Shown here in pieces: positions 10,813 through 41,144 of a DNA stretch of 63,714 bases (positions are counted from its first letter, which is position 1; every line of letters begins with the position of its first letter). The translations under genes were made by a program, and so were the position numbers. The notes below the pieces were generated by a model. That model did no database searches. It worked only from the letters and a program-made list of their open reading frames with translations, and had not been told where the DNA came from. The DNA comes from a virus (taxonomy: Duplodnaviria > Heunggongvirae > Uroviricota > Caudoviricetes). The stretch is taken from IMG/VR virus record IMGVR_UViG_3300038393_002131; one strand, given 5' to 3'.

Positions 10813-10832
10813 CCCCGCCCGACTTCTTCGAC

Positions 10833-14407: not shown

Positions 14408-14442
14408 TGCGCGCGCACCATGCGCGCGGGATGCGCGCGCAC
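14406..14442 (+). repeat. Three direct repeats ATGCGCGCG
   Basis: At 14407, 14420 and 14431; first and third extend to GATGCGCGCGCAC. Confidence 0.7.
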
Positions 14443-14478
14443 GAAGGCCCGCCGGGGGAGTAGTCCCGGCGGGCCTTC
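14443..14478. terminator. Bidirectional hairpin between convergent conjugation and head modules
   Basis: GAAGGCCCGCCGGG / CCCGGCGGGCCTTC, perfect 14-bp stem, 8-nt loop. Confidence 0.75.
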
Positions 14479-14496
14479 CGCGTGTGGTCGTGCTCG

Positions 14497-16647
14497 TCAG
14501 GCGCGCAGGGCGTCCATCTGCGCGCGGTGCTCGTCGGGGTCGAGGTGCACGACCTCGTCCTCGTCGTCGTCGGCGTCCGGGTCGGCTGTGCGCGCGTCCT
14601 CGGGCGTGGGCTCCGGCTCGACCGGCGCCACCGGGGCGTCGGCGGTCGGGACGACCTCGTCGTCGGCATCACCGTCGGGCTCGGGCTCGACCGGCTCGTC
14701 CTCGGTCGGCTCGTCCTCGGGGTCCGGGTAGTCGCCGTACTCCTCGTCGTCAGACTCGGGCTCGTCCTCCTCGTCGGGGGCGACCTCACCCATGACGGCT
14801 CCGGCGACGTCGTAGCCCTTCACGGCCAGTTGGTCGAGGAGGCGCAGCAGCGGGTCGGTGAGCTCGCCAAGGCTCTTGCCCTCCGGCAGCGCGCCGACGA
14901 ACCGGACGGCGTCCTCGAGCGCGCCGGCGGCCGGGTCGAGGAACCGGATGCGGACGTCCGCGCCCTCGGTCAGCTCATCGGGCTCGTCGAGCGCGATGAG
15001 CGACAGCTGCACCGGCTCCGGCTGGTCGAGGCTGACCGCGTCGCCGTCGAGGCGGTAGCCGAGGCGGAACGTCTCGTCGTCGCGGGCGCCGGTGCGGGTG
15101 ACGATGACGTAGTCGTCGAACATCGCGTCGACGCACACCCACCCTCGGGGCGCGTCGGGGTCCTCGAGCGGGGGCATGAGCAGGTCGTTGACGGCCTTCT
15201 GGACGAGGTCGCGTCGCTCCTCGTACGAACCAGGCATGTAGGGCATGGACTTCTTCTCCGTGGTCGGGGTCGGGATGGACTTGCCTTCGATCGGGCGGGT
15301 GTCGACGACCCAGTCGCCGAGGTCCTTCTTGATGTCGCCCTCGTGGTCGTCGCACGCCGGGGCGTAGGCGCGGCCCTCGGTGTGGACGATCCGCTTGGTG
15401 GCCGGTGACGAGCACTGCGCGCACTTTTGCGTCTTGGGCAGGCTCTTGGCCTCCATGACGGCGGCCAGCCCGTCGCGTCGCATCAGGCGGGCGAGCTCGA
15501 GCACGACGGCCTTGCCCTCCATCGGCGAGGCCGCCGGCGCGGCCGGGGCGAGCGGGATCGGGTAGCGGTTCGTGCCGACGACGAGGTACGCGTCGGAGAA
15601 CGACAGGGGCGTCGGCGGGACGACGTCGACGTCGTCGAGGCCGTACCCGAGGGTCATGTGCGGGGTGAAGCCGTGCTCGGACTGCTGCGGCCGGCCAGCG
15701 TCGGCCAGGGCGCCGGTGACGGCCACCCGCAGCCGGTCGAGGCCCGGCACGTCGACCGGCACCCACACCGGCTCGCCGTCGGGGCCGGCGGGGAACCGGC
15801 CGATGCCGCCGACGGAGCCCTCAAGCGGGCCGACGTCGGCCACCGCGGCGCCGATCGCGCTGGCGAGGGCGGTCGGGTCGTCGACCGGGTCCGTGCCGAG
15901 GTAGGCGATGGTGACGTGCAGGTCGTCCGGCTCGAGCCCGCCCGGGACAGCGATACGGGCCGCGGACTCCGGGTCCGGGTACAGCGCCACCATGACGCCG
16001 TCGGTGTGGTCCGGCTGCACCGGCGCCTCGTCGACGAGGCCGATGCCGTCGGTGTCCTTGTGCTCGAGGTCGGGGATCGGCGAGGAGTCCGACGCGTCGG
16101 CGCCCTTCACCTCGAGGGCGAGAGCCATGTCGTGAGCTCCGTGGAGCACGAGGGAGCATTCGTACAGCTCGAGGCCGTAGATGATGCGGACGTCGCCACG
16201 CTTGGACGACTGCCCGTCGAGGACCTTGTAGCCGATGGAGAACGCGGCCTCACCGGTCGCGGCCCACAGCTTGCAGTGCTCGTAGAAGTCCCGCCCGTCC
16301 TGCGTCTTGAGGTTGAACTTCATCGTCGCGATGAGCGCGCCGGCGGCCGCGGGCCAGGGACGCCCGTCGGGGGTGCGCTTCGGCAGGCGCTTGTCGCCGG
16401 GCTTGAGCTCGACGATCGACAGGACGGACCCCAGCGGCCGCTTCCAGTCGTGCATCCAGCAGAACTTGGGGCGTCGGCGACGCAGGGTGGCGGCGAACGC
16501 ACCGGGGTGCACGATGTCGCGGACCGAGTCCTCGGTGCCGGTGACAGAGACGATCGCGGTGACGATGCCCTCGTCGGCCGCCGGGGGGCGCGCGGCTGCC
16601 GCGGCTACGGCCCGTGGGCCTCCGCGCGTGAGCAGAGTGGTCGGCAC
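14497..16647 (-). CDS. HK97-type prohead protease fused to a 2H (Acb1/LigT-like) phosphoesterase, a Zn-finger and an acidic tail
   Basis: Protease about 16105-16575 (GIVTAIVSV..DIVHPGAF..WMHDWKRPLG..AFSIGY..LYECSLV). 2H about 15550-16000 (GVMVALYP..LHVTIAYLG..FTPHMTLGY). CxxC..CxxH about 15340-15425. Confidence 0.85.
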   Translation of the reverse strand: MPTTLLTRGGPRAVAAAAARPPAADEGIVTAIVSVTGTEDSVRDIVHPGAFAATLRRRRPKFCWMHDWKRPLGSVLSIVELKPGDKRLPKRTPDGRPWPAAAGALIATMKFNLKTQDGRDFYEHCKLWAATGEAAFSIGYKVLDGQSSKRGDVRIIYGLELYECSLVLHGAHDMALALEVKGADASDSSPIPDLEHKDTDGIGLVDEAPVQPDHTDGVMVALYPDPESAARIAVPGGLEPDDLHVTIAYLGTDPVDDPTALASAIGAAVADVGPLEGSVGGIGRFPAGPDGEPVWVPVDVPGLDRLRVAVTGALADAGRPQQSEHGFTPHMTLGYGLDDVDVVPPTPLSFSDAYLVVGTNRYPIPLAPAAPAASPMEGKAVVLELARLMRRDGLAAVMEAKSLPKTQKCAQCSSPATKRIVHTEGRAYAPACDDHEGDIKKDLGDWVVDTRPIEGKSIPTPTTEKKSMPYMPGSYEERRDLVQKAVNDLLMPPLEDPDAPRGWVCVDAMFDDYVIVTRTGARDDETFRLGYRLDGDAVSLDQPEPVQLSLIALDEPDELTEGADVRIRFLDPAAGALEDAVRFVGALPEGKSLGELTDPLLRLLDQLAVKGYDVAGAVMGEVAPDEEDEPESDDEEYGDYPDPEDEPTEDEPVEPEPDGDADDEVVPTADAPVAPVEPEPTPEDARTADPDADDDEDEVVHLDPDEHRAQMDALRA

Positions 16648-16673
16648 TCCCGTTCCTCCCCATCGTTGATGTC

Positions 16674-16711
16674 GGGGAGGAACGTGCCTGTGTCAGGGGG
16701 CTTGTGTCGCG
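16674..16711 (-). promoter_or_regulatory. Putative late promoter (protease)
   Basis: CGCGACACAAG-N14-CACGTT-N7, then a short leader with GGAGG SD. Confidence 0.65.
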
Positions 16712-16902
16712 TCCTTCTTCGCCAGCGCCATCCGCGCCTGCGACAGGCCACGGTTCCAGAAGCGGAACTTGACCCGGTCACCGACGCCACCGTTGGGGTT
16801 GTACGGGTTGTCGGCGCCGGTCTTGCCGGCCACGGCGGCGTCGCGGCCCTCGAACAGGGCACGCCACGCACTGACGCGGTTGATGCGCTGCACCTCAGCC
16901 AC
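16693..16902 (-). CDS. Rmf/CrpP-like small protein
   Basis: RALFEGRDAAVAGKTGADNPY...FWNRG resembles the ribosome modulation factor pattern (G..AG..G....CPY.....W..G); GTG start overlaps upstream gene. Confidence 0.55.
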   Translation of the reverse strand: MAEVQRINRVSAWRALFEGRDAAVAGKTGADNPYNPNGGVGDRVKFRFWNRGLSQARMALAKKDATQAP

Positions 16903-17554
16903 GGGCCGGTCCCTTCGTCTCGTAGCGGAGCTCGTAGGCCTTGCCCTCGAACTTGAACCGCTTGTGTCGATTGTCCATGTGGTCGGACTCCTCGTCGACT
17001 TCGTCGTCGGCTGACAGGTCCGTGTCGCCCTCGGCGCCGTCGTCGGTGACCTCGGCCGACTCGCCGTCCTCACGCATGGCGCTGTCGTCGTCGGCGACCT
17101 GGGCGTCGGCCTCCTGCTCGGGCTCGTCGCCCTGCTCGTCGACAGGTTCCCCGCCGTCGGTGTCGGCCTCGTCGCCCTCGGGGATCTCCTCGCCGTCGGC
17201 CGGGGCGCTCTCGCCTCCGTCGCGACGCAGACCGGCGTCGTCGACGTCGATGGCCCACGACTGCGGGTCGGTGTACCGGTAGACGGTGCCGTCGGGGGTG
17301 CGGACCCAGCCGGTGACGGTGCCGTCGTCGTCGTGGTCGAGCCAGCCCTCGGTGCCGTCCTCGCCCTTGAGGTGGGCGTAGGCGTTGGCCGGGTCCGTCT
17401 CGTCACCCTCGTCGTAGACGTCGCCGGAGAACGGCTGGGGCTTGTTCGGGTCGGCCTGCTCCTGACCGGGCGGGCCCGCGACCTCGCGAGCAGCTGCCGG
17501 GGCGTCGTTCGGGACGGCTGGCAGCACCTTGTACTGGATCTCGATGCGGGACAT
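16895..17554 (-). CDS. Acidic hypothetical head-module protein
   Basis: Small Trp/Asp-rich domain (GWLDHDDDGTVTGWVR) plus long D/E tract; own promoter motif. Confidence 0.75.
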   Translation of the reverse strand: MSRIEIQYKVLPAVPNDAPAAAREVAGPPGQEQADPNKPQPFSGDVYDEGDETDPANAYAHLKGEDGTEGWLDHDDDGTVTGWVRTPDGTVYRYTDPQSWAIDVDDAGLRRDGGESAPADGEEIPEGDEADTDGGEPVDEQGDEPEQEADAQVADDDSAMREDGESAEVTDDGAEGDTDLSADDEVDEESDHMDNRHKRFKFEGKAYELRYETKGPARG

Positions 17555-17904: not shown

Positions 17905-20900
17905 TCAGGCGGCGAGGTCCTCGTCGAGGTCCATCAGGTCGCGCAGCTTCCGCATCGGCACTCCCGCGTCCGCGGCCGCCCGGACCCGGTTCCGCAGCTC
18001 GCTACGGCGGTCGGCCGAAGCCTCGCCGCGCCACCCGTCGAGGAAGCCCTGACGGACGCCGAACACGAACGAGAGCACCGACCGGACCACGGCCATCGCG
18101 ATCTGACCCAGCAGCGTCACGATCTGCGCGATGAGCCCCGGGCGGTAGGACCGCTCGGCCGCCAGGCGACGGGCCGTCTCAGCGCGGCGGCGAGCCGACC
18201 GGGCGAGGATCGCCTCGGCCATCTTCCGCAGCTCCTTCTCGGCCTGCGCGGCGTCGAGGTTCTTCGCCTGGACCTTCGCCACCAGCGCGTCGACCTCCTT
18301 GAGCAGGTCCTCCGTGAGGGAGTCGACCTCCGCGCGGACCTCCCGGTTCGTCGCGTCCTGCTGCTTCGACGGGTTCGGGCGGGTCACGCCGCGGCCGGCG
18401 CGCTTCTCCCGTCGGCCGTCACGCGACCACCCGTCGGGGCGGGCGGCGCCGTCGTCGACGACGCGGAGCACACGGCCCGAGTGGGTCGTCGCCCGGTCGT
18501 TGTCGTCCCACACGACCGTGACGTCACGGCCACGGGTGAGCACGACGCGTCCGCGGCGGCCGCTGTTGTCCTCGACGAGCGAGCCGGGGAACAGACCGAA
18601 CTCGCCGTCACGGTCGGCCGGGATCCGGTTCGGCATGCGGTTGTTCCGCACGTCGAGCCGGTTCTTGTCCAGCTGCCAGCCAGCGTCGGGCACCTCGTGC
18701 ATGTCGGGGCGCGGCGCGAGGGCCACCATGGCGTCCAGCGGCACGTAGACCGTGTGCTGGGCGCCGAGCCCGTCCATCTCGTCGGAGACGGTGACGGCCA
18801 TCATGTCCTCGCCCGGGCCGTCCTCGCCCGGCTTGCGGACGAGCACCGGCATCGGGTCGTTGGTGAGGAACCCCGCCGCGGAGGCCGGGTTGCCGTCGCC
18901 GTCGATGCCGTCGACGTGGGCGTAGTCGCCGATCTGCAGCGAGCCGGGGGTGGCGTACGCCGCCTGCATCCCGGCGGCCTCCGTCTCCTCGAGGGGGACG
19001 TCGACCTTGTCGCCGTCGACGGTCTTGGTGACCTTCTTCTTCGACCCGTCGGCGTTGGTGTGCTTCGCCTTGGCGGCCTCGCGGGCGAGGTCCCCTGCGG
19101 AGCGGTCACCGCCGACCCGTGCGCCGGCAGGCTTGGCCGACGGGGTGACGTCGAGGCTGCCGGAGCCGTTGAGGCGCGGCTCGCCGTCGACCTCGGGCGC
19201 CTCGGGGGCGTCCGCCGCGTCCGGGGTGGCCGGCGCCTGGGCGGGCGTCGGGACCTCGTCGGCGGGCTGCACGAGCTCGTTGCGCGGCATCGGCGTGCCC
19301 GAGGGCAGACCGTCGTCGACGACGTCCGGCGTGGAGAGCCCGTCGGGGATGGGCGTCTCCGCGTTCGGCTCCGTCGGCATGACGGGGTCCGGGGTGGGCG
19401 TCATGTCGACGGGCTCGGCCATGCCGATCGGGTCGACCGAGCGCACGTCGGCCGCGTCGAACTCGTCGACGAGGTCGGGGGTGAGCTCGAGGCCGCGGAA
19501 CGTCCCGTCCGGGTTCGCGACCGGGGTGCCGATGTAGAGCTGACCGTCCGCGGTCTGGATCGCGACCTCGTCGACGTTGCCGTCCGGGCCGGGCGTGAGC
19601 AGCGCACGCACCTGCTCCGGGGAGAGCCCGTTGGGGAGGTCCTGACCCATGAACGAGTCGGCCGTGATCGCCTGCGGTCGGGCCGCGGGAGCGACCTCCG
19701 GGGTGGTGGTCGTCCCCGGCGTCGACGGTGCCGAATCCGCCGACGCCGGGGTGTTCGGGGCGCTCGGGGCCGACGGGGTCGGCTCCGAGACGTTGGGCGT
19801 GACGTCGGGGGTGACGTCCGCCTGCGGGGCGTCGACAGCCTCGGGGGCGTCGACGCGCGTCAGGATCGTGTCGCGCGGCATGTCCTCGCCGGTCACGGGG
19901 AACCCGCGGTCGGCGCCGGCGTACTGGAACCGGATGAAGTTGGGGTTGGTCGTCACCGACACCACGCGGACGGGCTCGCCCGTCTCGGGGTGCAGGACGA
20001 TGTCGCCCTTCTTGACCTCCTCGGCGGCCACGGGGACGCGGGTCGCGCCCTCGGGGACGTCGACGACCTGCAGCGGCCGGTTCGTCATGACGTCGTTGAT
20101 CGGCGTGCTGGCCGGGGCCGGGGCGTCCACCGTCGGGGCCGACGGCGCGTCAGCGACGCCACCGGTCGGCGCGGGGCCGTCCGAGACGTTGCCGGGCGCC
20201 GGGACACCCGCGGGGGCGTCCGGGGTGGCCGTGGCGGGCGCGCCGCCAGCTGCCGGGGCCTCCGCGACACCGCCCTGCTCGTCACGGGCCGCGTCGAGGG
20301 CGCGCTTGCGCTCCCACGACTCGCCGTAGCCGCGCATCTTCTGCGGGATCTCACGGACGGGCACCTTGCGGGCCGTGCCGGTCGGGCCGTACTCCACCGC
20401 CGACACGCGCGGCTTGCCCTCGCGGGCGCCGGGCACGACGTTGACGTACAGGCCGCCAGCGGAGAACGGGTCGCGGACGCTGATGCCGACCTTGCCGTCC
20501 TCGGCCGGGGTGACCTCGACGGGCGCACCGGCGGCGCGGCCCTTCGCGGCGTAGCCCTGGGCGCGGTCCCACACCGCCAGGGCGATGTGCTCCGGGCGGG
20601 CGTCGTCGACGTTGACCGACTCGGCCACGGCGCCGGGGATCGGGTCGCCGAACGCCTTGTCGATGGCGGCGTTCTCGGCGTCGATCTCCTCCGGCGTCAT
20701 GTCGGCGCCGTCCTTGCCCGAGGCCGGGGTCAGGTGCTCGGCGTCGACGGGGCGGGCCTCGTCGGCCTGCTCGAGCGCCTTCTCGACGTCGGCCTTGTCG
20801 GCGATGGTCGGCTCCGGCTTCCGGGTGTCGACGCCACCGGCGGGCAGGTGCCCGTTCGGGACGTCGGCGTTCGGGGCGTCCGGGGCGCCGGCGGGGCGTC

Positions 20901-23900
20901 CCTTGCGGCCGTCGTCGCTCGAGCCCTGGCCCTGGCCGGGCATGTCGGGCATGTGCAGGTGCGGCAGGCCGAGGTGCGGCCGGTTGTGCCCGCCACGGTT
21001 GCGGCGGCGCCTGTTCCGGCGGTTCCGGCGGCGGCGGCGACGCTCCTCGCGGTCGTCGTCCTCCTTCTTGCGCTCGTCCTCGGACAGCTGGTCGCGGCGG
21101 TGCTTCTCGCCGCGGGCCTTGTCGCCCTCCTCGTCGTCGCGCTCGGCGGCGTCGTCGAGCTCACGGTCGGTCATGTCCTCGACACGGTCCCGGTCGTCGC
21201 GCTCGTCGCGGTCGTTGCGGTTCTCGTCGTCGGCGCGGTCCTTCTCCGACTCGCCGTCTTGCTCGCCCGTGGCGGACTCGTCCCGACGCTTGCGACGGTC
21301 GGCGTCCTCACGCTTGCGGTCCTCGTCGGACAGGTGCGCACGGCGACCCATCTCGGCGTTGAGGGCCTCGAGCCACGCCTCGTCGTTGGTGTGACGGCCG
21401 ACCAGACCCTCAAGCTCGGTGAGCTCGTCGTCGTGCAGGTCGTCCGTCGAGTGGTGACGGAGGCCCTTCGGGTCGTGCTCGGCCGCGAGGGGCGTCGACT
21501 CGGCGAGCTTGTCGCCGCGCTTGATCGCGCCGGGGATCGAGTAGTGCTTCATCCCGTGCTTGCGCATCTCGTCCGGGGTCATCCCCCAAATGGCGAGGGT
21601 GGCCTCCTCCGGCACGTACTTCGCGATGGTGTTCGCCGGGACGCCGTTGCCCTCCATGAGGCGCTTCTGCATCTTCGGCGGCAGGCCGGAGATCGCGTCG
21701 ACGCCGGACATCTTCCCGCTGGTGTTCTTCGGGTCGAAGAACCGGTTCAGGATGGCCTCGTTGTCGCGGCGCAGCTGGTCGAGCACGTCGGCGTCGGCCT
21801 GCGGGAGCGGGTCCCGCGTCGGGCGGCCCGTGCCCCACCCGTCACTGGTGGTGTCGGGCTCGGCCGCGGCGTCGAGGATGTCGCCGACCTCGGCCTCCTG
21901 CTGCTCGTCGAACAGGCCAGCAGCCTCGCGGCGGTCCATCTCGGCCTCGAGCGCCCGGTAGACGTCGGGGTCCTCCATGTTGGCCGGGTCCATCGCGGCC
22001 GCCATGATCTCGTCGTTCGACATGGCGGTGAAGTCCGGGCCGGCCGGCGCCGCGGGGGCGACGTCGTCGACGGTGACCTCGGGCACGTCCTCCGGCTCCG
22101 GGGCGACCGCGGCGGCCTGCTCCGGCGTCGTGACGGGCTCCTGGGTCGGGATCTCCTCGCCGGTCTGGCGCGGGCCGTAGGTGCCGCCGTAGTCGCGACG
22201 CTCACGCTCAGCCTCGGCGTCGCGCAGGCCGATCCAGTTGCCGCGGCCGCCGTGCTGCTCGTTGTCGCGCTTCGTCTCGGCGGCGATGCGCTGCGCGAGC
22301 TCCTCGTCGGAGATCTCCGTCAGGTGCGACCCGTCGCGCTCGGACAGCTCGCCGCGGACGGTGCGCAGACGCTCCTCGACCCGCTGGGCGAGGGTCGTGT
22401 CGGGCGCGTCGGCGAGGATCCGCGAGGCGTCCTCAAGGGTCGCCAGCTCGGCCTCGAGCTCGCTCGAGTGCTTGCGGTCGTCGGCCAGTCCGCCCCGGTA
22501 GTTCAGGCGGGACAGCTTGTCGCCGTACTTGTTCCACGCCTCGGCCTCGGCCCGCATCTGCGGGCCCATCTTCTCGACGTAGCGCGCCGCCTCGATGCCG
22601 GAGCGGTGCGACTGCGGCCACGCGCCGCCCGGCTCCCAGCCGCGCAGGCTGTAGGTGTTGATGTCGGTCGGCTCCATGCCCGGCTCGGCGAGCCGGTTGA
22701 GGATCGTGCCGTTCCACCAGTCGCCGGACGACTCACTCTTGAACGAGTCCTCCTTGGCGGTCGTTCCGATGAGACGGTGCGGCCACATGACGAGCGTCGC
22801 GTCACCGTCGCGGTAGGCGCGGGCGCCGGCGCGCTCGATCCACTGGTGCTCGGGCAGGTCCTCACCGAGGGGGAACCGCTCGAGCGCGTCACGCTTGGCG
22901 CGGGCGTTGAGCCAGTCCGACATGAGGCTCGCCCGGTCCACGCCGGAGGCGCCGCGGGAGTCCCACGTCCCGTCGGGCTGCAGCGTGTAGTACCGCTGCA
23001 TGCCGTGCTGGCCCTTGCCGATCGCGAACCCGATGGTGCCGTCGGACAGGACGGTGCCCATCTCCGGGTCGCGGGTGAACTTCGGCACGCCCTGCGTGGT
23101 CGTCAGGTCCGGGGTGCCCTTCGGCATCGACTGCTTGACGACCTCGCCCTGGTGGGCGGGGGCGTCGGCGACGGCGCGACGGTTCAGCTCGGAGTCGCGG
23201 TGCTCGGCCAGCGCGTCCTTGAGGGTGTAGCCGCCGCGGTGACCGACGCCGAACCAGTAGCGGCGCACCGAGTCGTCCTTGCTCCACTCGTTCGCGTCGT
23301 AGGCCTGGATCGGCTCGCCGACCTCGTTGCCGTCGGGGTCGATCAGCGTGGCCGACATGCCGTCGTCGGCGATGCGGGCCTTCCAGCCCTCACCGGCGTC
23401 GACGATCTGGCCGGCGTCGGTGATGCCCTTGGCGACCTGCGGGGCCTCCGGGGTGACGTCGGCGGCGGGCGCCTCGGGAGCGGCCGGGGCCTCCGGCGCG
23501 CTCGGGGCGCTCGGCTCGTCGACGATCTCAGCCGTCTTGGGGTCGACCTTGACCGTCTCCGGCGCCTTCGGGGCCTCGGGGGCAGCGGCCTTCGGCTTGG
23601 AGCCGGCCGTACCGCCGTTCTCATCGGTGTGCTCGAACACCCACGCGAGGGAGCCCGGGTCGAGCTCCTTCGCGGCGCGCGTCACCGCGACGTAGTCGAG
23701 GCGCAGCTCCTCCGGGTCGGGGAACGTCACCGAGCCGTCGTCCTCGTCGATCTTCGGCTGCGGGAAGTCGCCGCCGATGCGGACGCGGTCCCACTCGAGG
23801 CCCTTGGCCTTGTGCGCCGTCGAGATCGTGACGTCGGGCTTCTCCGCGGTGCCGCCGAGGAGTTCACGCAGACGGGCCAGTGGCCGCTCCTGCGCGTCAC

Positions 23901-26900
23901 GGTCGCCCGCGACCTCCCACGTGCCGCCCTTGCCGGACTCGTTCTTGCGGAAGCGGAACCCGAGCGAGGACAGACCCTCGCCGCCGGTGGCCTTCTTCAC
24001 GGCCTCGTTGAGCGCCCACGTGTTGCCACCGATCGACATGCGGTGGTCGTCGCGCTCGATCTGCACGCCAGCCAGGGCGTCGTCGGCCGGCTCGGTGACC
24101 TGCGAGACGAGGTCCTCCATGCCGTCGATGCCGTACCGGTCGACGAGGCGGGCAATCATGGAGATCTTCGGGTCGTCGCCCTTGGCCGCCTCCTGCATGA
24201 CCTCGGCCCACGAGTTGTAGGGCTCGAGGTCGGGGTGCATGCCCTTCCACGGCTTGCTGCGCTCACCGCGCAGGTAGCCTGCGGACTCGATCAACGACTC
24301 GAGCTCGGTCTTGGTGCCCTTCGGCACGCCGACCGTACGGCCGCGGCCGAGCTCCTCCTCGATCGCGGCGAGCAGTCCGCCGTTGGTGCGCACCAGCACA
24401 CCGTCGGCGTCCTTCATGCCCTCGACGATCTTGCCCTCCTTGCCGCCACCGACCGCGCGCTCCTTGGAGCCGAGCAGCTGCAGGAAGCGGTTGCCCGCGT
24501 CGGCGATGGCCGGGCCGTAGCGCCACGACTTGTCGAGCGGCAGACGGACGTCACCCTCGGCCTTGGACAGGTAGTCGGTCGCGCCGGCGAACCCGTAGAT
24601 GGCCTGATCGGAGTCGCCGACGATGACCTTCTGCATCTTCTGGTCGGCGAACACCTTGGCGAGCACCGGCGGGGTGTCCTGCGCCTCGTCGACGAACAGG
24701 ATCGACGCCGCGCGACGGTTGCCCGAGCCGGCCTTGGACAGGTCGGGGCGGGCCAGGGCCCACATCTTGCGGAAGTCGTCCTGCGAGACGCGGAGGCGGC
24801 CCTTGGGGTCCTTGATGTCCTCCCACGCACGGCGAGCCTGTGCGACGAGCCGCGCCTCCTGGGCGCCGTTCAGCTGCGACCGGACGCTCTGCGGGAAGTG
24901 CTTGCCCATGATGTTGTCATCGGCGGAGAGGACGTACTGGCCGATGGCCTTCTGGATGGCCTTGGCCTGCTGCTCCGGGGTGAGCTCGCCGAGGTCGTCG
25001 GTGATGCCGAGGTGGCGGGCGACGTCCTTGGCGTTGGACAGCTGCCCCGACTTGCCGAACTTGTCGGTGATCTTGCGGCCGACGAAGTTCCACGCGAGGG
25101 AGTGCCCGGTGCGCGTCTCCACGTTCGAGGGCATGCGGCCCTCGGCCTCGAGCTGGACGCTCTTGTTGAAGGCGGCGTAGAGGATCTTCGCGTCGGGGTG
25201 CAGCTCGGCGATGCGCCGGGCCAGGCCCTCGAGCGTCGACGTCTTGCCCGCGCCGGCCTTGGCCTCCACGATGACGTTCTTGCCGTCGACGGCGGCCGCC
25301 TCGTAGATGTCGCCCTGCTGCTCGGTCGGGGCGTGCTTCTCCCCGGCGATGGCGCCGCGGACGCGCTGCGCCTCGGGGCTCTTGGCCTTCGCGGCAGCCT
25401 CGGCGGCCGGGGCGGCGGCCGGGGTGGGCACCTCGACCGGGTCGGGCACGCGCTCGTCGGTCGGGTCGGGAAGGTCGTCCGACGTGGGCGCTTCGGGGGT
25501 CGAAGCCTGCTCACGGCGCGTGATCTCGTCATTGATCCGCTTGTAGGCGCGACCCGTCCAGAACCCGTTGTCAGCGAACCGGTGGTCACGCAGCTCGGCG
25601 AGTTCCTCGTCGGACAGCGTCGACATGTCGAAGTCGGCCGCGATGTCGTGGATCGGCGTGTTGTACGGCCGCTCCTCGGTGGTCACCATGCCAGCGGGGC
25701 CGGGCAGTTCCGGCTCGTCGGGGGTGGCCGGCGCGTCCGGCGTGCGGTCGCCACCGTCACGGCCACCGTCACCGGCGGCCACGGGGGCGATCTTGTCCTT
25801 CCACACCCGGACGGTGGTGTTCGGGTTGAAGGTCTGCGTGCGGGTGCCGCCCTTGCCGTCGTCGAACGTCAGCTGGACGCGGCCGTTGGTGGTCATGCCC
25901 TTGTCGGTGACCTTGCCGTTGCCGGGCAGGACGTCGCCGAGCTGCACGCGGTTGGCTGCGGTCGGGACGGACTCCATGTGCTCTGGGCGGGCGTCCGGGT
26001 GGTACGGGCCGCGGGCGTCCGGCGCCTTGGGGGCCTCCGGGGCGTTGCCGGCCTTCGGCTTCCACACGTCGACCGTGGCGTCCGGGTTGAACGAGCGGGG
26101 CCCGATGGTCCCCTCGCCGTTGTCGAGCACGAGGAAGACCTGGCCGCGGGACGTGGTGCCCTTGCCGACGACCTTGCCCTTGCCGGGGAGGATGTCGCCC
26201 TCCTGCACCTCGGTGACGGGCGTCAGGACCGTCTCCATGTCGGCGGGCTGGTTGTCCGGGTGGTACGGCCGGGCCGGGGTCGGGCGCGACGGGGCGTCCG
26301 GCGTGCTGGCGGCGGGAGCGTCCGGCACGGCGACGTCGAGGTGCTCGTCCGGGCTGTAGGAGTCCGTCGAGGACTTGCCGTCGGCGTCGACCGACGTGAT
26401 GAGCACGTCGCTGCGGCGCGGGTCGACCTCGGTGACGGTGTGCAGCTGGCCGTCGCCGCCCTTGACCTTGTCGCCGGGCTTGATGCTCATGGCCGGGCGG
26501 GTCGTGGTCGGCGTCTTGTCGACGAGCGGTGCGTCACCGGTGGTGTCGAACAGGTCGTCAGCCTCACGGACCGGAGCGGCCGGGGCCGTCGGCGCCTTCG
26601 GGGTGGGGGCCTCCTGCGTCAGCATGAAGTCCTCGCCGCCAGGGACGAGGTCGTCACCGCCGAGCATGGTCTGCCCGGCCATGGCGTCGCTGTCGTAGGC
26701 GCCGGCGTCCACGAGCGGACGCTCCTCGGCGGCCGGAGCCTCCGGGGCGGCGGGCGCCGCGGGCTTCTCGTCGACGACCTCGGCGGTGGCCGGGTCGACA
26801 ACGAGGGTGGGCTCGTCGGCCTTCGGCTCGGCGGGACGCGCAGACGGCGCCTCAGCGGCCGCAGACGGCGCCTCCGGGGCCGAGGGAGCCTCCGGGCGCG

Positions 26901-29900
26901 CCGGGGCCGCCTCGGGGGCGTCCTCGACGATCTCGGCCGTCTCCGGGTCCACCTTGACGGTGTCGGTCGGCTTCGGGGCCTGCTCGCCCCGCTCACGCGG
27001 CGTCGAGGACGAACCCGACGACGAGGTGCGGCCGCGGGCCTTCTTCACCCGGGCGGCGACCCGCTCGCGGATCTCCTTCCGGTCAGCGTCCGGCTCGAGC
27101 GTGGCGATCGTGTCGGTGACCGAGTCGATGAGCCGCTCGTCGGAGGAGTCGGGCAGGTCGGCCAGGGCGTTGTCGATCTGCTCGTCGGCGCGGGCGTGCC
27201 ACGCCCGGCCCTTCGTCTTGCGCTGGTAGAACTCCGCGGCCTTCGCGATCTGCTCGATGGGCGGCAGCATGTCGGCCGGCAGCGGCATCTCCGGGTCGAC
27301 GATGTCGAGCGCGGAAGCCGCGTCGTCCTTCGCCGCACCGACGATGTCGTGGTACTCCTGCTCGAGCGCCTTGAGCTCGTCCTCGTCGAGGCCCTGCGAC
27401 TGGCCCGCGATGACACGGTCGACGACCTCGGCGAGCTCCTTGGCCTTGCGCAGGTCGTCCGTCTTGCCGAACTCCTTGCCGGCGGCCTCGCGGGCCTGCT
27501 CGGCGCCGCGCTCGGCCTTCTCGACGTCGGTCTTGGCGCGCTGGTACGAGTCCTCGAACCCGCGGCCCTGACGCTCAAGCGACGCCACCGGCATCGCCAG
27601 CTGGGCGTCCTTGGACTTGGGGTCCAGGTCGCGCAGCTCGATCGGGGTGGCGCGGCCCTCAAGGCCCTCGAACGCGACCTCGAACCAGTTGCGGCTCGAG
27701 CCCTCCATAACGTCGGAGTGCACGTAGCGGGAGCGCAGCTTCATGCCGCCGAGCTCGCCGAAGTCGGCCCACTCGGTGCTCTGGTTGCGGTTCGGCAGGT
27801 TGGCGTACTGCTCGGCGAGGACGCGCTTGATCTCGGCGTCGGCCGCCTGGCGGGCCTTCTCGGTGTTCTTGTCGAACACCTTGCCGCGGACGGTCATCTT
27901 GAACTTGTCGCCCGTGGTGTCCTGCCACTGCTCGGCGGCCTTCTGCAGCTTGGGCAGGTACGGCTTGAGCACGTCGGCCTTGTGCTGCAGACGCGCCACC
28001 GCGGCCGAGGCCTCGGCGCGGTTCGTGTTGTGCGTCTTGAGGTCGGCGGTCAGGTCGAGCAGGCGCGCGTCCGCGGTCGCCTTGCGCATCAGCCACGGGT
28101 TGCCCGCAGCCAGCGCGACGATCTCGGAGGCCTGCAGCTCGTCGGAGGACACGTCCTCCATCTGGCGGACGTTGCGGTCGCCCTTCATGGCCGCGTTGAT
28201 GAACTTCTGCTTGCGGGCGACGCCCTGCCACATGTACGAGTCGAAGGTGCCCTCGGTGACGTACTGGAAGATGTCGACCGCGGCGTTCTGGTTGCCCTGA
28301 CGCAGAGCGCGACCGTCGCGCTGCTGCAGGTCGGCCGGCCGCCACGGCACGTCGAGGTGGTGCAGGGCCACGACGCGGTCCTGCACGTTGGTGCCCATGC
28401 CCATCTTCGACGTGGAGCCGACGAGCACGGCGATGCGGCCCTCGCGGGCGTCTTGGAACAACTGGGCCTTCTGGACGTCGTCCTTGGCCTCGTGGATGAA
28501 CCGGATCTGGTCGGCCGGCACACCCTTGGCGATCAGGTCGTCCTTGAGCTGCTGGTAGGGCGACCACTTCGGCGTCGCGTCGAACGGCACGACCTCGAGA
28601 CGGCGCCCGCCGCCCTCCTCGGGGAACAGCGCGTCGAGGACGTCGGCGACCATCTCGGCCTTGGCGGTGTCCTCGTCCCACTCCGAGGTGTCGACCTCGA
28701 GGTTGTCGGCGATCTGCTCGATGTCCGAGGCCTTCATGTTGCCCATGAGGCGGTTGGCCTCGGCGCGGGCCGCGGTGCGGTCCATCGTCCCGGCCTCGAC
28801 GGCGTCGTGGATCGGGGCCAGACGCTCGGCGAGCTTGTTGACCTTCGGCGACGTCGGGTCCTTCGGCGTGCCGAGGTCCATGAACACGAGCTGCAGCGCA
28901 CCGGCCTGCTCGTGCAGGTCGTCGGAGTCGGCCCGCTTGTAGAGGTTGCCGCGGTTGCGCTGGTAGGTGGAGGTGATCTGGTTGGCGGCCGCCTGCAGCT
29001 TCGGCGACACCTCACCCTCGGGCCCACCGACGAGACGCATGTCCAGGGCGGCCTTCCGGCCGTCGCCGGAGATCTTGAGGAGGTTGTCGTCCTTCGGGTC
29101 GACACCGCCGCCCTCGACGGCCTTGGCGCGCTCGGCGAGGTCGGCGATGTAGTCGGCCTGCGCGTCGGACCGCTTGACCATGATCGTCTTGGGCTTGCCG
29201 CCGCGCAGCTCGGGGATCGGGAGGTCGGCGTCCATCTTGACGTCGGCGAACTCGCGGAACATGCCGAGCATCTCGGGCAGGTTGGAGAACTTCGCGAACC
29301 GGGCCTTGGCCTTGAAGTTGGCGCCGGTGATGTCGACCTCGGGGGTGGCGACGACCTCACCGAAGGTCGCGGCCCACCGGTCGAACGAGTTCGTGCCGGT
29401 CTTTTCGAGCAGGTCGGGGCGCATGAACCGGGTCATCGTGTAGGCCTCGGTCATGCTGTTCGACAGCGGCGTCGCCGTCGCGAACGTGCCGACCGGGCGG
29501 GTGACGCCCTTCTTCTCGCGCAGGAAGTCCAGCTTCATGTGGATGTCCTGCGCGCGGTTCGCGCCGGTGATGTTGGCGCCCGGGATGCGCGAGGGCGTCA
29601 TGAGGTTCTTGAACAGGTGGGCCTCGTCGACGAACAGGTAGTCGATGCCGGTCTGCTCGAACGTGACGCCGCCCTTCTCGCGGGCCGTCTCGATCTTGTC
29701 GCGGTACTTCTGCTCCATGTTGAGCAGGGAGGACTCGAGGCGCTTCACGCCGCGGCCGTCCTCACCGTGGAGGGCCTTGCGCGCCTCGAGCTCGGCCCGC
29801 TTCTCGGCGAGCTCCTTCTCGAGGTACCGCTCCATCTGGTCCGGGCCGACGGGCATCAGCTCGAACGCGGAGTGGGTGAACACGACCGCGTCCCAATCGC

Positions 29901-32900
29901 CGGAGGCGGCCTTGGCGGCGAACGCCTCACGCTTGCGGCGGGTGTCGGCCGCGCCCGAGCCGGCCAGGTCGCTCTTGCGGGCGACGAGGACCTTGGCGTT
30001 CGGGAACGCCTTGATGAACTCGCGGGTGTACTGCTCGAGCATGTGGTTGGGCACGACGTGCGCCGGCTTGTTGGCGATGCCGAGCTGGCGCAGCTTCATC
30101 GACGAGGCCTGCATGACGAGCGTCTTGCCGAAGCCCACGTCGTGCGCGAGCAGCGTCGTCGGCTGGGTGATCGCGCGGGAGACGCCGGCGTGCTGGTGCG
30201 GCCGCAGCGAGAACGCGTCGGACAGGCCGTGCACGGTGACCCGGCGGGCGCTGTAGTCGGCGTCCGCGAGGAAGTTGAACATCTCGTTGTAGCGGCCGAC
30301 GAGCCGGTCGCGGCGGTCCTCGTCGGACCACACCCACTGCCGGAACTCCTCGAGCATCTGCTTGGCCTTGGTGAGGGCCTCGCGGGTCTTGGCGTGGTCG
30401 GTGTAGGTCTTGCCGTCGACGGTGTACGTGACCTTGATCGGCGACTGCTGGATCACCGACTGGAAGATCTTGCCGGCGCCCCACAGGACCTTCGGGCGGC
30501 CTTCCTTCGTCGTGTCGGTGTCGGACAGCACCGACCACTTCTCGGCCGCGAACGAGGTCACGGGGACCTCGACGTCCCAGCCGGACCCGCCGCCGGGGTT
30601 GAGCACGAGCGCGCCGGGCGCCTCGAACTTCTCCCGGGCGAACGCCGTCAGGTCCTCCTCGCTCATCCATGCGGCACCGGGGCGCACGTCGATCTCGTGG
30701 GACTGAATGTCGGCCGGGACGCGCGCCTCGAGGAAGGTGACGTTCTTCTCGAACGACGGGTCGTGCTCAGCCAGGGCGCGCGCGACCTTGAGCTTGCCGC
30801 GGACGTCGCCGGCGCCGTACGCCGTGACGTCGACGTACGTGTCGAGCTCCGGGTCCTTGAACACGTGCCCGTCGACGGCCTTGAGCGCGGCGTCCTCGTC
30901 GGGCAGGCCCATGAGGGCGGCGATCTTGGAGAGGTTGACCTCGCCGGACTGGTCCTGCGACAGCATGACGGCGTCGACCGGGTCGTCGGTGCGGGTGATG
31001 ACCTTGGCCGGGGAGACGGTGCGGCCCTCGAAGATCGCGGCCTTCTTCGCGATGCCCGTCTCGGGGTTGTAGTCCTCGAGCGCGCCGGTGGTGATGAAGC
31101 CCATGCGGTCGGACTTCCACACGGCCGGGATGCCCGCGATGGCGCGGCGCTTGGCGTTCGGGTCGTCGGCCTTCGGCTCGGAGAACCGGACGCGGTTGAT
31201 CGGGCCGAACGTGCCGACGTAGTGGTCGTACTCGTCGTTGAGCTGCTTGCGGAGCTCGGCCATGAGCGGGGTGTCCTCGTCGTGGGACACCTCCTCCTCC
31301 ATGAGCGCGGTGCGCAGGTCGCGCAGGCGCATCAGGCCGAGGACCTCCTCGGTGCGGGACTTCGGCACCGTCAGCTCGACCGGCTTGCCGTTCTCGAGGA
31401 TGGTGAAGCCCTCGCCGTTGGGCGACAGGTCGATGTAGCCCTCGTCCTTGCCGTCGATGCTCTTGCGGCGGCGGATCGCGTCGTCGACGGTCGTTGGCAG
31501 GCCCTCGCGGGGCGTCATGCCGAGGCGCTGCTTGTGGGCGTCGGCGGCGATGTTGCGCAGGGCGTTCCGCAGCTGGCCGGGCAGCGCGTCGAGGTCCTTG
31601 TTGACGACGGTCAGCGCGTCGTCGGCGCCGTACATCGACTTGCCGACCTCGATGTCACCGAGGACGTTCTCGGGGTGGCGGGCGAAGTACTCGTTGACCG
31701 TCCAGTCCTTGCCGGACTTGGTCTTGATCTTCTTGCGGCCGACGAACTTCTCGCCGCGGGGACGCTCACCGTCGAGGCGGCGACGGAACATCAGAATGTC
31801 CGTGACGACGTCGGTGCCGGCCGAGGCCTTGTGGGCGCCGCCGGGCAGGCGGACCGCGCCGAGGAAGTCACCGAGCGACGCCATCTCGTCGCGGCCCTTC
31901 TTCGACGTCTTGTCCATCGAGCCGGACGAGGTCATCACCATGACGAGGCCGCCCGGGCGGACCGCGCGCATCGCCTTCGTGATGAAGTGGTCGTGCATGT
32001 TGAGCCCGGCCTTGTTGCCGCCGGTCGGGTCGTGCAGGACGGCCTCGTGGAACGGCACGTTGCCGATGACGGCGTCCAGGCTGTTCGGCTTGAGGTCGAC
32101 GTTCTGGAACCCGGCCGCCTCGATGTGGGCGTTCGGGTGGAGGAACTGCGACATGGCGGCGGTCGTCGGGTCGAGCTCGACACCGACCATCCGGGCACCC
32201 TTGGGCGCCATGCCGATGAAGTTGCCGATGCCGGAGCCCGGCTCGAGCACCGTGCCGTCCTCGAACCCGAGGTCCTGCATCGCCTCCCACATCGACTGCG
32301 TCATGTGGGCGGCCGTGTAGTGGGCGTTCAGCGTCGTGCGCGACGCGGCCGCGGCCTCCTTCTGGTCAGGCAGCAGCTCGGCGAGCTCGGCGCGCTCCTT
32401 GGCGAACTCCGGCTTGTCCTCGTCGAACATCTCCGGCAGCGCACCCCACGAACCCCACTTCGCGAGGACCTTGCGCTCGTCCTCGGTCGCGGGCCGGTTC
32501 TCGGCCTGCAGGGTGCGCAGCACGCGCAGCGCGTCGAGGTTGGCGCGGGCACGGGCCTTCTTCCCGCTGGGGGAGAGGTCCTCCTGGCTCGTGGCCTGCC
32601 ACGGGCCAGGGACGTCCGCGCCGGCGTCCTTGAACGACGGCGCGGCACCGTTGGGAGCCTCGGGGGTGGGCTCCGCAGCGGCCGCTACGGCGTCGGCGTC
32701 TCCGCGGGCGGCGTCGTCGGCTCGTCCACCGGCAGCTCGTTCTCCCGGGCGTCCGGCTCCGCTGGCAGGAACACCTCCTGCTCGAGCACCTCGGCCTCCG
32801 CCGTCCTGAACGCCCACAGCATCAGGTCGCGGCGCTCCTGCTCGGTCGTCGGCTGCGGCTTCTCCGCGGCCGCCAGCTGCTCCGCGCGGCGCTGCACCAG

Positions 32901-35745: not shown

Positions 35746-37965
35746 TCAACGCGCGACCTCGAGATCTGTCACAGCGCCCCGGGCGATGCCCGCGGCGACG
35801 GTCCCGGCGCGGAACGCGTACAGCGACTTGACCTCTGCGACAACGTCGCTCATGGACGTCGTCGCGGAGGCGGCGGTGTCGATCGTGGTGGCGACGTCGA
35901 CGAGGAACTCGCGCATCTGCTCGGCGGCGCCAGCGGCCGCGATGAACGCCGCGGAGTCGCTGCCCGCGTCGGCGAGGAGCGGCTGCACGGTGTTGACCGT
36001 CTCGAGCTCCCACCGGTCGACGTCGACGACCTTGCTGACGTCGATGGCGTCGTCACCGCCGCGGGTGTCCGACGGGCCGTCCGGGGTCCAGAACGGGGTG
36101 CCCTTGCGTGTCCGGGGCGACTCGAGGCGGGCGGTGATGATGCCGACCTGCCGCGACAGGGCGGCCGCCATCGCAGCGGCGACGCTCATCTCGGCGACCT
36201 CGGCCGACTTGCCCTCGGTGCGGGCCCGGCGCAGCGCGTCGGCGCCGTCGCCCTCGGTGTAGCCGCCCATGTCGGCGTCGGCCTCGGCGACGGCTGCGGC
36301 GCCGTCACCGGGGGTGCTGCCCTCACCGGAGCGGACCTCCGCGACAGCGGCCGCGCCGTCACCGGTGTCGCCCTCGACGTCGTCGACTGCGTCGATCTCC
36401 TCCTGCGTGGGCGGACCCCACGCCTCAGCGTCCGCAGCGTCACCCTCCGGGGCGTCGTCGAGCGCAGCCGGGACCTCACCGGCGGCGATCGCGGCCTCGA
36501 GTCGGGCGACCGCGTCAGCGCCGTCACCCTCGGCGCCAGGCTCGGCCGGTGCGCCACCGTCGGGGCCGCCGTCCGGGCCGGCCGGGGGCTCGCCGTCGGG
36601 GCCCGGGGGCATGCCGCCACCGTCGGGGCCAGCCTCGCCGCCCATGCCGAGCCCGAGGGCCTGCTCGTCGCCGGGCTGGCCGGGGATCGGCGCCTTGGAC
36701 GGGTTCGTCCACAGCGCGCGCGTCTGCGGGACGTTGAGCATGGGCAGGTTGGCGAGGTTGCGGTACTCGTCGATCGAGCGGAGGCCCTGGTTGACCTCGG
36801 TGCGGGCCTCCTCGCGGTCGCGGCGCTTCGGCAGCTGCAGGACCTCGATGTGGGAGGTGTCGAGGTAGGGCTCCCAGCCGCCGTACGGCAGGTCCTCCTC
36901 GAACGCCTCGGCGACGAGCTCCATGTAGGTGGGGAGCACCTGCGTCCAGTAGTTGTAGAGCTCGGCGTCGGCATTCTCGAACGAGCGGCCGGACGCGTTG
37001 CCGAGCATCGACTCGCCGATGCCGAACGCGGCGAGGATCTCGACCTTGGCGTTGGTGGAGGCCTCGCCGTAGCTCATGTCGCGGGGCTTGGTGGCCGTGT
37101 CGACGTAGTTGAGCCCGCCGGGGCCGGTGCCGATGACGGTCATGGCGCCGGCGTGATGCGCACCCGGGAGGAACTTCCGCTCGATGCGCTCCATCTCCTG
37201 ATCGGACAGGGAGTCGGTGTCGACGCCGAGGACGCCGGAGGGGCGCGCGTCGCGCTTGATGAACGACGAGTTGTAGATGCGGGTCAGGAAGTCGAGCTCG
37301 ATCGACAGGCCCGCGGCCTCGAGCGGCGTCGTGCCGGAGTAGGCGTCGGTCGGGTGCGGCTGGCGGATCCATCTGATGTGCTGCGGCTGGATCTCGCGGA
37401 CGGTGCCGTCGCGGCGGGTGAACTCGAACCACTTGATGTAGTCGTAGCCGTTGTCGGCCGGGATCGGGCGGGTGCGCTGCGGGTCGAGCAGGTCCAGGCG
37501 CACGATGTTGCCGGCGCGGGACTTGGTCACCTCGACGAACACGCCACGCTTGGAGAGGAGCAGCTGGGCGACGAGCCGCTTCTTGAACAGCTTGGCCTTC
37601 TCGAGCTGGTTGGCCTTGACGTTCAGCACCCGGTACAGCGGGTGGTCCTCGAGCGTCTCCTCCCGCTCGGTGCCGCGGTCACGGCCAGCCTTGAACTTGA
37701 GGCGGGACAGGTCGCCGGAGATGAGCTCGACGCACCGGTAGACCCAGATCGCGCGCTCGTACCCCTCGCTGATGACGGTGTCCATGTCCCACGCGTCGGC
37801 GCGGCCCTCTGTGCCATAGAGGCCGTTGCCGATGCGGGTCGTCGACAGGTACGCCGCGCCAGACACCGGTCCGCCGATGCTCAGCGACTTCTCCTCGACG
37901 CCGTCCGTGACGTCGAGCGCGCCCGTGCTGTAGCCGCCGCGCAGGGCAGGCAGGAACTTCCTCAC
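35746..37965 (-). CDS. HK97-family portal protein with long acidic C-terminal extension
   Basis: WVYRCVELISGDLSRL, HPLYRVLN..N, QLLLSKRGVF, IRQPHPTDAYSGTTPLEAA, ILAAFGIGESMLG, RSIDEYRNLANLP. GTG37965 overlaps upstream stop. Confidence 0.9.
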   Translation of the reverse strand: MRKFLPALRGGYSTGALDVTDGVEEKSLSIGGPVSGAAYLSTTRIGNGLYGTEGRADAWDMDTVISEGYERAIWVYRCVELISGDLSRLKFKAGRDRGTEREETLEDHPLYRVLNVKANQLEKAKLFKKRLVAQLLLSKRGVFVEVTKSRAGNIVRLDLLDPQRTRPIPADNGYDYIKWFEFTRRDGTVREIQPQHIRWIRQPHPTDAYSGTTPLEAAGLSIELDFLTRIYNSSFIKRDARPSGVLGVDTDSLSDQEMERIERKFLPGAHHAGAMTVIGTGPGGLNYVDTATKPRDMSYGEASTNAKVEILAAFGIGESMLGNASGRSFENADAELYNYWTQVLPTYMELVAEAFEEDLPYGGWEPYLDTSHIEVLQLPKRRDREEARTEVNQGLRSIDEYRNLANLPMLNVPQTRALWTNPSKAPIPGQPGDEQALGLGMGGEAGPDGGGMPPGPDGEPPAGPDGGPDGGAPAEPGAEGDGADAVARLEAAIAAGEVPAALDDAPEGDAADAEAWGPPTQEEIDAVDDVEGDTGDGAAAVAEVRSGEGSTPGDGAAAVAEADADMGGYTEGDGADALRRARTEGKSAEVAEMSVAAAMAAALSRQVGIITARLESPRTRKGTPFWTPDGPSDTRGGDDAIDVSKVVDVDRWELETVNTVQPLLADAGSDSAAFIAAAGAAEQMREFLVDVATTIDTAASATTSMSDVVAEVKSLYAFRAGTVAAGIARGAVTDLEVAR

Positions 37966-38174
37966 GACTGCTCCTCCTCGACGGTCAGCAGGTAGCCGCC
38001 GCAGATGAGGCCCGCGCCGAGCAGCGCGCACCCGAGGCGCCAGTCGGTCGCGAACGCAGGCACGATCAGGGCGGCGGCTCCAAGGAGGAGCGCGAGGAGG
38101 CCGAGCAGCTCGCGCAGTTGCGCGGCGCGGGTCGGGGCCTGTTCGGGCTGGGGCTCAGGCGGCATGGTGGTCAC
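37962..38174 (-). CDS. Small two-TM membrane protein upstream of portal
   Basis: LLGLLALLLGAAALIV..LGCALLGAGLICGGYLL. Confidence 0.75.
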   Translation of the reverse strand: MTTMPPEPQPEQAPTRAAQLRELLGLLALLLGAAALIVPAFATDWRLGCALLGAGLICGGYLLTVEEEQS

Positions 38175-40786: not shown

Positions 40787-40793
40787 GGCAGCG

Positions 40794-41144
40794 TCACGCC
40801 CCGTAGCACTTCGGGCACGGCGGGACGCCGACGTCGGTGACGACGGTGAGCTCACCGGTGCGGCCGCACGCGGTCATCTCCTCGCCGGCGCGACGGTGGG
40901 CGAGCAGCGCGCCGTTGACCTGCCACTGCAGCGCCGGGTGTGTGGGGGCCTGCTCGGCGGCGCGCAGGATCGTGTCGACGCGGCCGCGGAGGGAGTCGCC
41001 GATGCGGGCCTCGCGGGCGAGGTCGATGTGCTCGTCGAGGATCCGGTCGAGCGCGGCGTCGAGCCGGGCGTCCCGGGCGGCGACCTGCTCGGGGGTGTCG
41101 GGGGAGGCCAGCATCGTGCGGACCTCGGCGGGGGAGAGGCTCAC
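40794..41144 (-). CDS. Hypothetical protein with C-terminal Cys/His cluster
   Basis: H...TACG...CPKC; GTGA overlap. Confidence 0.65.
   Translation of the reverse strand: MSLSPAEVRTMLASPDTPEQVAARDARLDAALDRILDEHIDLAREARIGDSLRGRVDTILRAAEQAPTHPALQWQVNGALLAHRRAGEEMTACGRTGELTVVTDVGVPPCPKCYGA

Follow-up and report, generated by a model that had tools for sequence, protein, structure and literature searches.

A prohead protease–2H phosphoesterase fusion with putative cleavage cassettes in a tailed-phage sequence related to Streptomyces phage Gilgamesh

Capsid-maturation proteins of the herpesvirus UL26 and lambda C-Nu3 type consist of an N-terminal protease of the assemblin fold and a C-terminal scaffold, with self-cleavage sites between the two parts and near the C-terminus. 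Proteins of this type are not known to have an unrelated enzyme inserted between the two parts, unlike the product of the gene considered here, which lies on the minus strand at positions 14497-16647 of a 63,714-nucleotide stretch of Caudoviricetes DNA (IMG/VR record IMGVR_UViG_3300038393_002131; hereafter, the window). This 716-residue protein has an S78 (HK97-type) prohead serine protease at its N-terminus, a conserved domain toward its C-terminus, and between them a 2H phosphoesterase domain bordered by E-x-K motifs. The reading to which we incline, as somewhat the more probable, is that the gene belongs to a Streptomyces phage or phage-plasmid of the Gilgamesh type and encodes a capsid-maturation polyprotein, whose 2H cargo is cut free, packaged, and acts on nucleotides of host immunity.

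Where 2H and NUDIX domains are fused to phage head proteins, the published prediction is that they enter the capsid and are injected, and that the 2H domains counter nucleotide-activated defence (PMC5512222; PMC9503650). These head-fused effectors and polyvalent proteins resemble the present protein in placing 2H, NUDIX, or ART domains on a MuF protein, a portal, or a capsid-processing serine peptidase; the combinations described in the two papers are 2H on MuF or portal and NUDIX on the peptidase, and neither sets out a 2H-S78 fusion with conserved cleavage motifs on both sides. The present gene is probably a further instance of this documented phage theme, an anti-defence enzyme fused to a head protein and packaged, to which it adds as a new detail the conserved E-x-K↓S cassettes around a swappable cargo slot (↓ marks the putative scissile bond). 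Prohead proteases themselves activate the cyclic oligonucleotide-based antiphage signaling system (CBASS) by cutting loops of cGAS/DncV-like nucleotidyltransferases (CD-NTases), and the Acb proteins of T4 mask this activation (PMC12991175); mutations in the protease escape type I CBASS (10.1101/2023.05.21.541620). The premise that prohead proteases activate CBASS, which the original prediction for this locus had put forward without a database search, is borne out by the literature.

Two phage proteins are close points of comparison. Gp52 of Streptomyces phage Gilgamesh (annotated "hydrolase") and its copies on linear Streptomyces plasmids of ~125-130 kb have the same S78 protease (49% identity), the same C-terminal domain, an equivalent place in the gene order, behind the genes for the portal, giant protein, gp50, and gp51, and ExK motifs around the middle domain, two before it and four after it in gp52. 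Unlike the present gene, gp52 has a NUDIX domain in the middle slot and is directly followed by the capsid gene, whereas a conjugation-like module takes that place here. Gp87 of Arthrobacter phage Kharcho (PHROG 14859), encoded after the portal and MuF genes, carries a domain of the same 2H subfamily and is likewise a prohead-protease fusion; it differs in that the 2H domain (residues 63-222) precedes the protease (252-368), which is of the XkdF-type S78_2 family, and in its length (379 residues) and its lack of the C-terminal domain.

Domain architecture and conservation

The window has a GC content of 72%, and third-position GC (GC3) picks out one long minus-strand open reading frame, with a GC3 of 0.94, at the position of the gene; the parts of its product are listed in Table 1. 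The protease is identified by a match to Peptidase_S78 (PF04586) of 38.9 bits, above the Pfam gathering cutoff of 21, and by a match over residues 25-189 to the head maturation protease family PHROG 80 (E 8.8e-21). Its N-terminal block aligns with residues 23-84 of HK97 gp4, and H66 and S137 were paired by eye from the sequences with the catalytic H65 and S114 of gp4. The 2H domain matches 2_5_RNA_ligase2 (PF13563) over residues 239-341 (49.5-52 bits; cutoff 27) and two 2H "RNA ligase" families of PHROGs over residues 205-338. In a MAFFT alignment of 102 homologues of 35-60% identity, every sequence has H66, S137, and H172 of the protease, and in the two HxT motifs of the 2H domain the histidines are kept in 101-102 of the 102 sequences and the threonines in 99-101. 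Because these residues are invariant or nearly so, both enzymes are selected for activity. The order of domains that the original prediction had read from the translation, a protease, then a 2H domain with HVT and HMT motifs, then a zinc finger, was confirmed by Pfam, PHROGs, and a motif search, and its range for the 2H domain (about 15550-16000) agrees with the boundaries in Table 1.

The zinc ribbon has the distribution of a minor, lineage-specific insert: of 124 relatives only 8 contain it, some with and some without the 2H domain, and in these its sequence is well conserved. The C-terminal domain is conserved throughout the homologues and corresponds to residues 407-571 of Gilgamesh gp52. 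Its AlphaFold2 (AF2) model (predicted local distance difference test, pLDDT, 84.5) consists of a helix, a small four-stranded sheet, and two long helices. A Foldseek search of the PDB with this model was empty at E<=0.001, a wide comparison with VIA returned only generic cystatin-, NTF2-, or VirB8-like arrangements (Z<=7.5), and the PHROGs search gave no family; weak BFVD matches are to prohead proteases of other phages, in their C-terminal parts. We treat the domain as protease-associated and presume it to be a scaffold or capsid-targeting part.

More than 160 homologues were found, mostly from Streptomyces and related actinobacteria and many of them on sequences of about 125-137 kb. They are annotated inconsistently, as "2'-5' RNA ligase family protein", "HK97 family phage prohead protease", "RNA ligase", or "hydrolase".

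Putative cleavage motifs and a swappable cargo slot

The E-x-K motifs that the original prediction had placed at the domain borders prove to be in excess, specific to the linkers, conserved, and shared with the expected maturation position of relatives' capsid proteins and with the N-termini of giant and portal proteins. The protein contains eight of them, where its composition would predict 1.85 (Poisson P = 7e-4). Nothing comparable is seen in the other proteins of the window, the next lowest P being 0.04 for two motifs. Summed over the homologues, linker 1 has 225 motifs against 37.5 expected (4.66 per 100 residues, about 6-fold) and linker 2 has 343 against 45.9 (3.18 per 100 residues, about 7.5-fold), whereas the 2H domain, with 8 observed and 8.0 expected (0.05 per 100 residues), is at the chance level. 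The sites directly flanking the 2H domain are conserved within otherwise variable sequence: in linker 1, K181 is present in 102 of 102 homologues, E195 in 95, and K197 in 91, and after the 2H domain E377 is present in 81 and K379 in 82. Relatives end with DEVK↓A about 10 residues before the C-terminus, where the present protein has DEHR-A.

The motif is found in other head-module proteins as well. In capsid proteins of Gilgamesh and of the 11x1 plasmid it appears twice, as E-x-K↓SLG(D/E)L around residue 96 and as EIEGK↓SIFSLS around residue 129, sites that would correspond to the expected position of delta-domain removal; the maturation site of HK97 gp5 is K103↓S104-LGSD. Giant proteins have E-x-K about 20-26 residues in from the N-terminus, and portals have it close to their N-termini; in the giant protein of the window it takes the form FEGK↓S, at residues 20-23, beside WNxALHPRDSxGRF, and both elements are common to Gilgamesh gp48. 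From the linker-specific conservation, together with the presence of the motif at the expected capsid maturation site of relatives, we infer that E-x-K↓(S/A/T) is very probably the cleavage motif of this protease and that the middle domain is excised at it. The FEGK↓S and adjoining motif shared with gp48 suggest, as a separate point, that the giant protein may have an N-terminal propeptide cut by the same protease.

What lies between the cleavage cassettes varies. A NUDIX domain fills the middle slot in Gilgamesh gp52 and in four plasmid copies, and nothing occupies it in the closest protease relatives (62-72% identity over the protease part by pairwise BLASTP), whose protease directly joins the ExK-rich linker, with the zinc ribbon and C-terminal domain after it. 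Because the slot holds 2H, NUDIX, or nothing, the 2H domain is a modular, swappable insert. The same 2H subfamily is present in 318 actinophage records; it is fused to a MuF-like protein in Dexdert (gp18) and stands alone beside the portal genes in DalanDe (gp19) and I3 (gp101). Together with the NUDIX-filled and empty slots, the MuF fusion and the standalone head-module copies indicate that the shared feature of these proteins is association with an internal head protein, not with a protease; this points toward packaging in the capsid as what the members of this 2H subfamily have in common. Larger relatives (1136 and 987 residues) join a 2H domain to a peptidoglycan-binding domain (PF01471), an arrangement that would fit exit from the capsid and contact with the cell wall.

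A working sequence of events can be proposed for a gene of this kind, in which an enzymatic domain is fused to the prohead protease within an operon with terminase, portal, and giant protein. The frame would comprise the N-terminal S78 protease, the C-terminal scaffold or capsid-targeting domain, and a modular cargo slot between them, occupied here by a 2H domain whose catalytic site looks intact. The polyprotein would be made late and co-assembled into the procapsid, where the protease would cut after the lysine of the E-x-K↓(S/A/T) motifs on both sides of the cargo and release a folded 2H enzyme of about 180 residues. Being too large to leak from the shell, the released enzyme would probably be retained and delivered with the DNA; it would also be present in the late cytoplasm. 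Its substrates would be host nucleotide immune signals, cyclic oligonucleotides of the CBASS or type III CRISPR type.

Affiliation and role of the 2H domain

The original prediction described the 2H domain as Acb1-like and proposed structure prediction with Foldseek against Acb1 and LigT as a check, which went against that label. With the AF2 model of the domain (pLDDT 91.7), VIA-align gave Z scores of 17.2 for drCPDase (5h7e), 16.3 for the Thermus protein (1iuh), 15.9 for that of Pyrococcus, and 15.7 for E. coli LigT (4qak), the LigT/ThpR superpositions covering 147-155 residues at a root-mean-square deviation (rmsd) of 2.5-3.7; the Acb1 structures 7t26 and 7t27 scored 10.6 and 10.3 (127 residues, rmsd 3.7-3.8) and rank below LigT, Usb1, AKAP18, and the rotavirus VP3 phosphodiesterase (PDE). 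Foldseek gave the same ranking, and PDE-9 of a Burkholderia phage scored Z 11.6 against the model. Sequence comparisons agree: a profile search of solved structures matches 2fyh, 1vdx, 5h7e, and 1iuh, the top Swiss-Prot matches are all ThpR, and no Acb1 chain appeared in the PDB sequence or profile searches at E<=10. Pfam Acb1 (PF23474) scored 14.6 bits against a cutoff of 27 and covered only 17 residues around the first HxT. Membership in the Acb1 family was rejected on this Pfam score and the structural ranking, and by sequence and model the domain is of the LigT/ThpR type.

The likenesses remain instructive on both sides. Acb1 of T4 and FBB1 (PF23474; 7T26/7T27) has the 2H fold, two HxT motifs, a phage origin, and a role in degrading cyclic oligonucleotides like that proposed here, but it is a free protein of about 150 residues with a C-terminal lid, whereas the present domain is embedded in a polyprotein. 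LigT and ThpR (PF13563/PF02834; 5H7E, 1IUH, 4QAK) share the core and the HxT motifs; they differ as free-standing cellular RNA-end enzymes of 17-21% identity, the present domain being a viral module within a head-maturation protein. A Swiss-Prot entry named "Anti-CBASS protein Acb1" (A0A494TJG7, Sphingomonas paeninsulae), a 624-residue protein with its 2H domain at 445-612 and 23% identity to the model, suggests that a validated or curated Acb1 can also be the C-terminal module of a larger protein.

Family membership alone does not settle the function of a 2H domain; the nearest indication of a substrate comes from the Kharcho homologue. In a survey of 75 phage 2H PDEs, Kharcho gp87 is "2H PDE-16", is listed as 2H-plus-protease, and was expressed as the 2H domain alone, which according to the legends of Supplementary Figures 5-7 gave cleavage products from 3'3'-cGAMP (cyclic GMP-AMP), with GpA>p as an intermediate (Doherty et al., 2025; bioRxiv 10.1101/2025.08.21.671373). 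Its 2H domain is 32% identical to residues 217-367 of the present protein (E 3e-18). Because a homologue is reported to cleave 3'3'-cGAMP, the most likely role of the domain, by analogy, would be that of a cyclic-oligonucleotide PDE.

Several points weigh against the reading of the gene as a packaged, immune-nucleotide-degrading cargo carrier. Cleavage, packaging, and substrate are deduced for this protein from sequence and by analogy, and both sequence and structure place its 2H domain with the cellular RNA 2',3'-cyclic phosphodiesterases LigT and ThpR rather than with Acb1. The activity of PDE-16 rests on the supplementary figure legends of a preprint, and 32% identity does not allow a confident transfer of activity; the same preprint describes two structural groups of viral 2H PDEs that were inactive on every immune messenger assayed (10.1101/2025.08.21.671373). 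Within the window, moreover, it is a convergent conjugation-like module, and not a capsid gene, that lies downstream of the protease gene.

The affinity with LigT and ThpR bears directly on a different explanation, that the 2H domain serves RNA repair or turnover early in infection by opening the 2',3'-cyclic phosphates that metal-independent host RNases (anticodon nucleases or toxin RNases) leave at tRNA or mRNA ends. The best sequence and structure matches are indeed RNA 2',3'-cyclic phosphodiesterases (5h7e, 1iuh, 4qak), ThpR heads the Swiss-Prot list, and Gilgamesh gp55 is annotated as a metallophosphoesterase, all of which would suit RNA end-healing. However, an association with RNA ligases was never found for the 2H domains of polyvalent or head-fused proteins (Iyer et al., 2017; PMC5512222), the window showed no RNA ligase, PDE-16 is reported in the preprint's legends to act on 3'3'-cGAMP, and the alternative NUDIX cargo better suits a small-nucleotide substrate, so that we regard RNA repair as unlikely, if worth keeping in mind. 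A purely structural role, in which the 2H fold serves as bulk or scaffold within the procapsid and catalyses nothing, would accommodate the closest relatives, which function without a 2H domain; it is hard to reconcile with HxT and surrounding active-site residues that are near-invariant at 35-60% identity, and we consider it highly improbable.

The original prediction had favoured a tighter coupling, in which the anti-CBASS enzyme is produced one-to-one with the protein that can trigger CBASS. The prohead protease would set off CBASS by cutting CD-NTase activation loops, and the fusion would supply an equimolar phosphodiesterase at every time and place of protease synthesis, so as to mask the alarm late in infection. 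This idea draws, by analogy, on the reports that prohead proteases activate CBASS while T4 Acb proteins mask it (PMC12991175) and that protease mutations escape type I CBASS (10.1101/2023.05.21.541620). It gains from the independent fusion of this 2H subfamily to two prohead-protease families in opposite orders, the S78 protease being N-terminal here and the XkdF-type protease C-terminal in Kharcho, and from the 3'3'-cGAMP cleavage reported in the legends for the Kharcho domain. Yet Gilgamesh and four plasmids have NUDIX in the same slot, the closest relatives leave it empty, and the same 2H subfamily, with its 318 actinophage records, occurs on the MuF-like Dexdert gp18 or alone by portal genes (DalanDe gp19, I3 gp101), and on balance we think such a pairing of trigger and antidote rather unlikely. 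A self-masking form of it, in which the fusion owes its existence to the detection of the protease by CBASS-type sensors, the antidote is made in cis and freed by the very proteolysis that raises the alarm, and the E-x-K slot is a docking bay for antidotes (2H, NUDIX) matched to the defences of the host, seems to us equally doubtful.

Genomic context and implications

The order of the head-module genes in the window (Table 1) matches that of Streptomyces phage Gilgamesh genes 44, 46, 48, 50, 51, and 52. In relatives, the gene lies between the portal and giant protein genes and the major capsid gene. The same order recurs, with the capsid gene next, on linear Streptomyces "plasmids" of roughly 125-132 kb, and a Gilgamesh-like block is present on such elements of about 114-132 kb; in NZ_CP122459.1 it comprises the giant protein, protease fusion, and major capsid protein, after which come mostly unnamed genes colinear with the head-to-tail and tail genes of Gilgamesh. 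PLSDB types the linear Streptomyces plasmids as non-mobilizable, and from their gene content those with a Gilgamesh-like block look like phage-plasmids. The two small genes upstream of the protease fusion gave no Pfam or PHROG family; one of them, a 69-residue gene at 16693-16902 (minus strand), has its match in Gilgamesh gp51, annotated as "ribosome modulation factor".

In the place of the relatives' major capsid gene, the window has a plus-strand module of about 14 kb (47-14407) that converges on the protease gene. A scan of 14300-16800 for consensus promoters and terminators was empty; the terminator scan needs a T-run, and the hairpin between the convergent genes is without one. A 7.3-kb metagenome contig from the Joint Genome Institute (JGI) carries the identical protein and the same junction with the plus-strand module.

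Just past the packaging genes lie a gene for an Lsr2-like nucleoid protein (41576-42028, minus strand) and one for a tyrosine integrase/recombinase (42327-43310, plus strand). A 1333-residue protein encoded at 43827-47828 (minus strand) has right-handed beta-helix/pectate-lyase-like, endosialidase-like N-terminal, and glycine-rich domains and is probably a tailspike or depolymerase.

Table 1. Parts of the protease-2H polyprotein and neighbouring features of the window (residue numbers, aa, refer to the polyprotein)
Feature	Position	Strand	Basis
Protease-2H polyprotein, whole gene	14497..16647	-	GC3; identical protein called on JGI metagenome contig
S78 (HK97-type) prohead serine protease, aa 25-178	16114..16575	-	Pfam PF04586, PHROG 80
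Linker 1, aa 179-215; putative cleavage sites LEVK (179-181), LEHK (195-197)	16003..16113	-	Homologue conservation
LigT-like 2H phosphoesterase, aa 216-368; HVT 244-246, HMT 330-332	15544..16002	-	PF13563, AF2
Linker 2a, aa 369-404; MEGK (377-379, conserved), MEAK (399-401)	15436..15543	-	Homologue conservation
Zinc-ribbon-like insert, aa 405-440; CxxC-x20-CxxH at 409-436	15328..15435	-	Motif
Linker 2b, aa 441-469; IEGK↓S (454-456), TEKK↓S (464-466)	15241..15327	-	Motif, ExK density
Conserved C-terminal domain, aa 470-615; includes PEGK↓SLGEL at 589-596	14803..15240	-	Homologues, AF2
Acidic tail of low complexity with a short conserved stretch at the C-terminus, aa 616-716	14500..14802	-	Translation
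Terminase large subunit	38981..40855	-	PHROG 2, E 1.6e-20
Portal protein	35746..38031	-	PF04860 E 9e-43; 45% identity to Gilgamesh gp46
Giant protein, 5913 aa: methyltransferase, SNF2 helicase, UvrD helicase	17905..35646	-	Pfam; both termini match those of Gilgamesh gp48
Two small genes of the head module, upstream; homologous to gp51 and gp50 of Gilgamesh	16693..17554	-	tblastn synteny
Perfect 14-bp GC-rich hairpin between the convergent protease and YdjM-like/FtsK-like genes	14443..14478	.	Read from sequence
M23 peptidase	8273-9634	+	Module gene
FtsK/TraB-like protein with FtsK-gamma domain	11004-13901	+	Module gene
YdjM-like protein	13898-14407	+	Module gene

The fusion links two recent lines of work, on prohead proteases as triggers of CBASS and on viral 2H phosphodiesterases that degrade immune nucleotides, and it does so in a natural protein, of which more than 100 examples occur in phages or phage-plasmids of Streptomyces and other actinobacteria. 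If processing and packaging proved false, the gene would be an ordinary, inconsistently annotated variant of the head module. The E-x-K↓S motifs offer concrete predicted cleavage sites, and a slot that holds 2H, NUDIX, or nothing would be a simple natural system for loading enzymes into capsids; if processing and packaging are true, the frame of protease, linker, and C-terminal domain could serve as a capsid-loading tag for actinophages.

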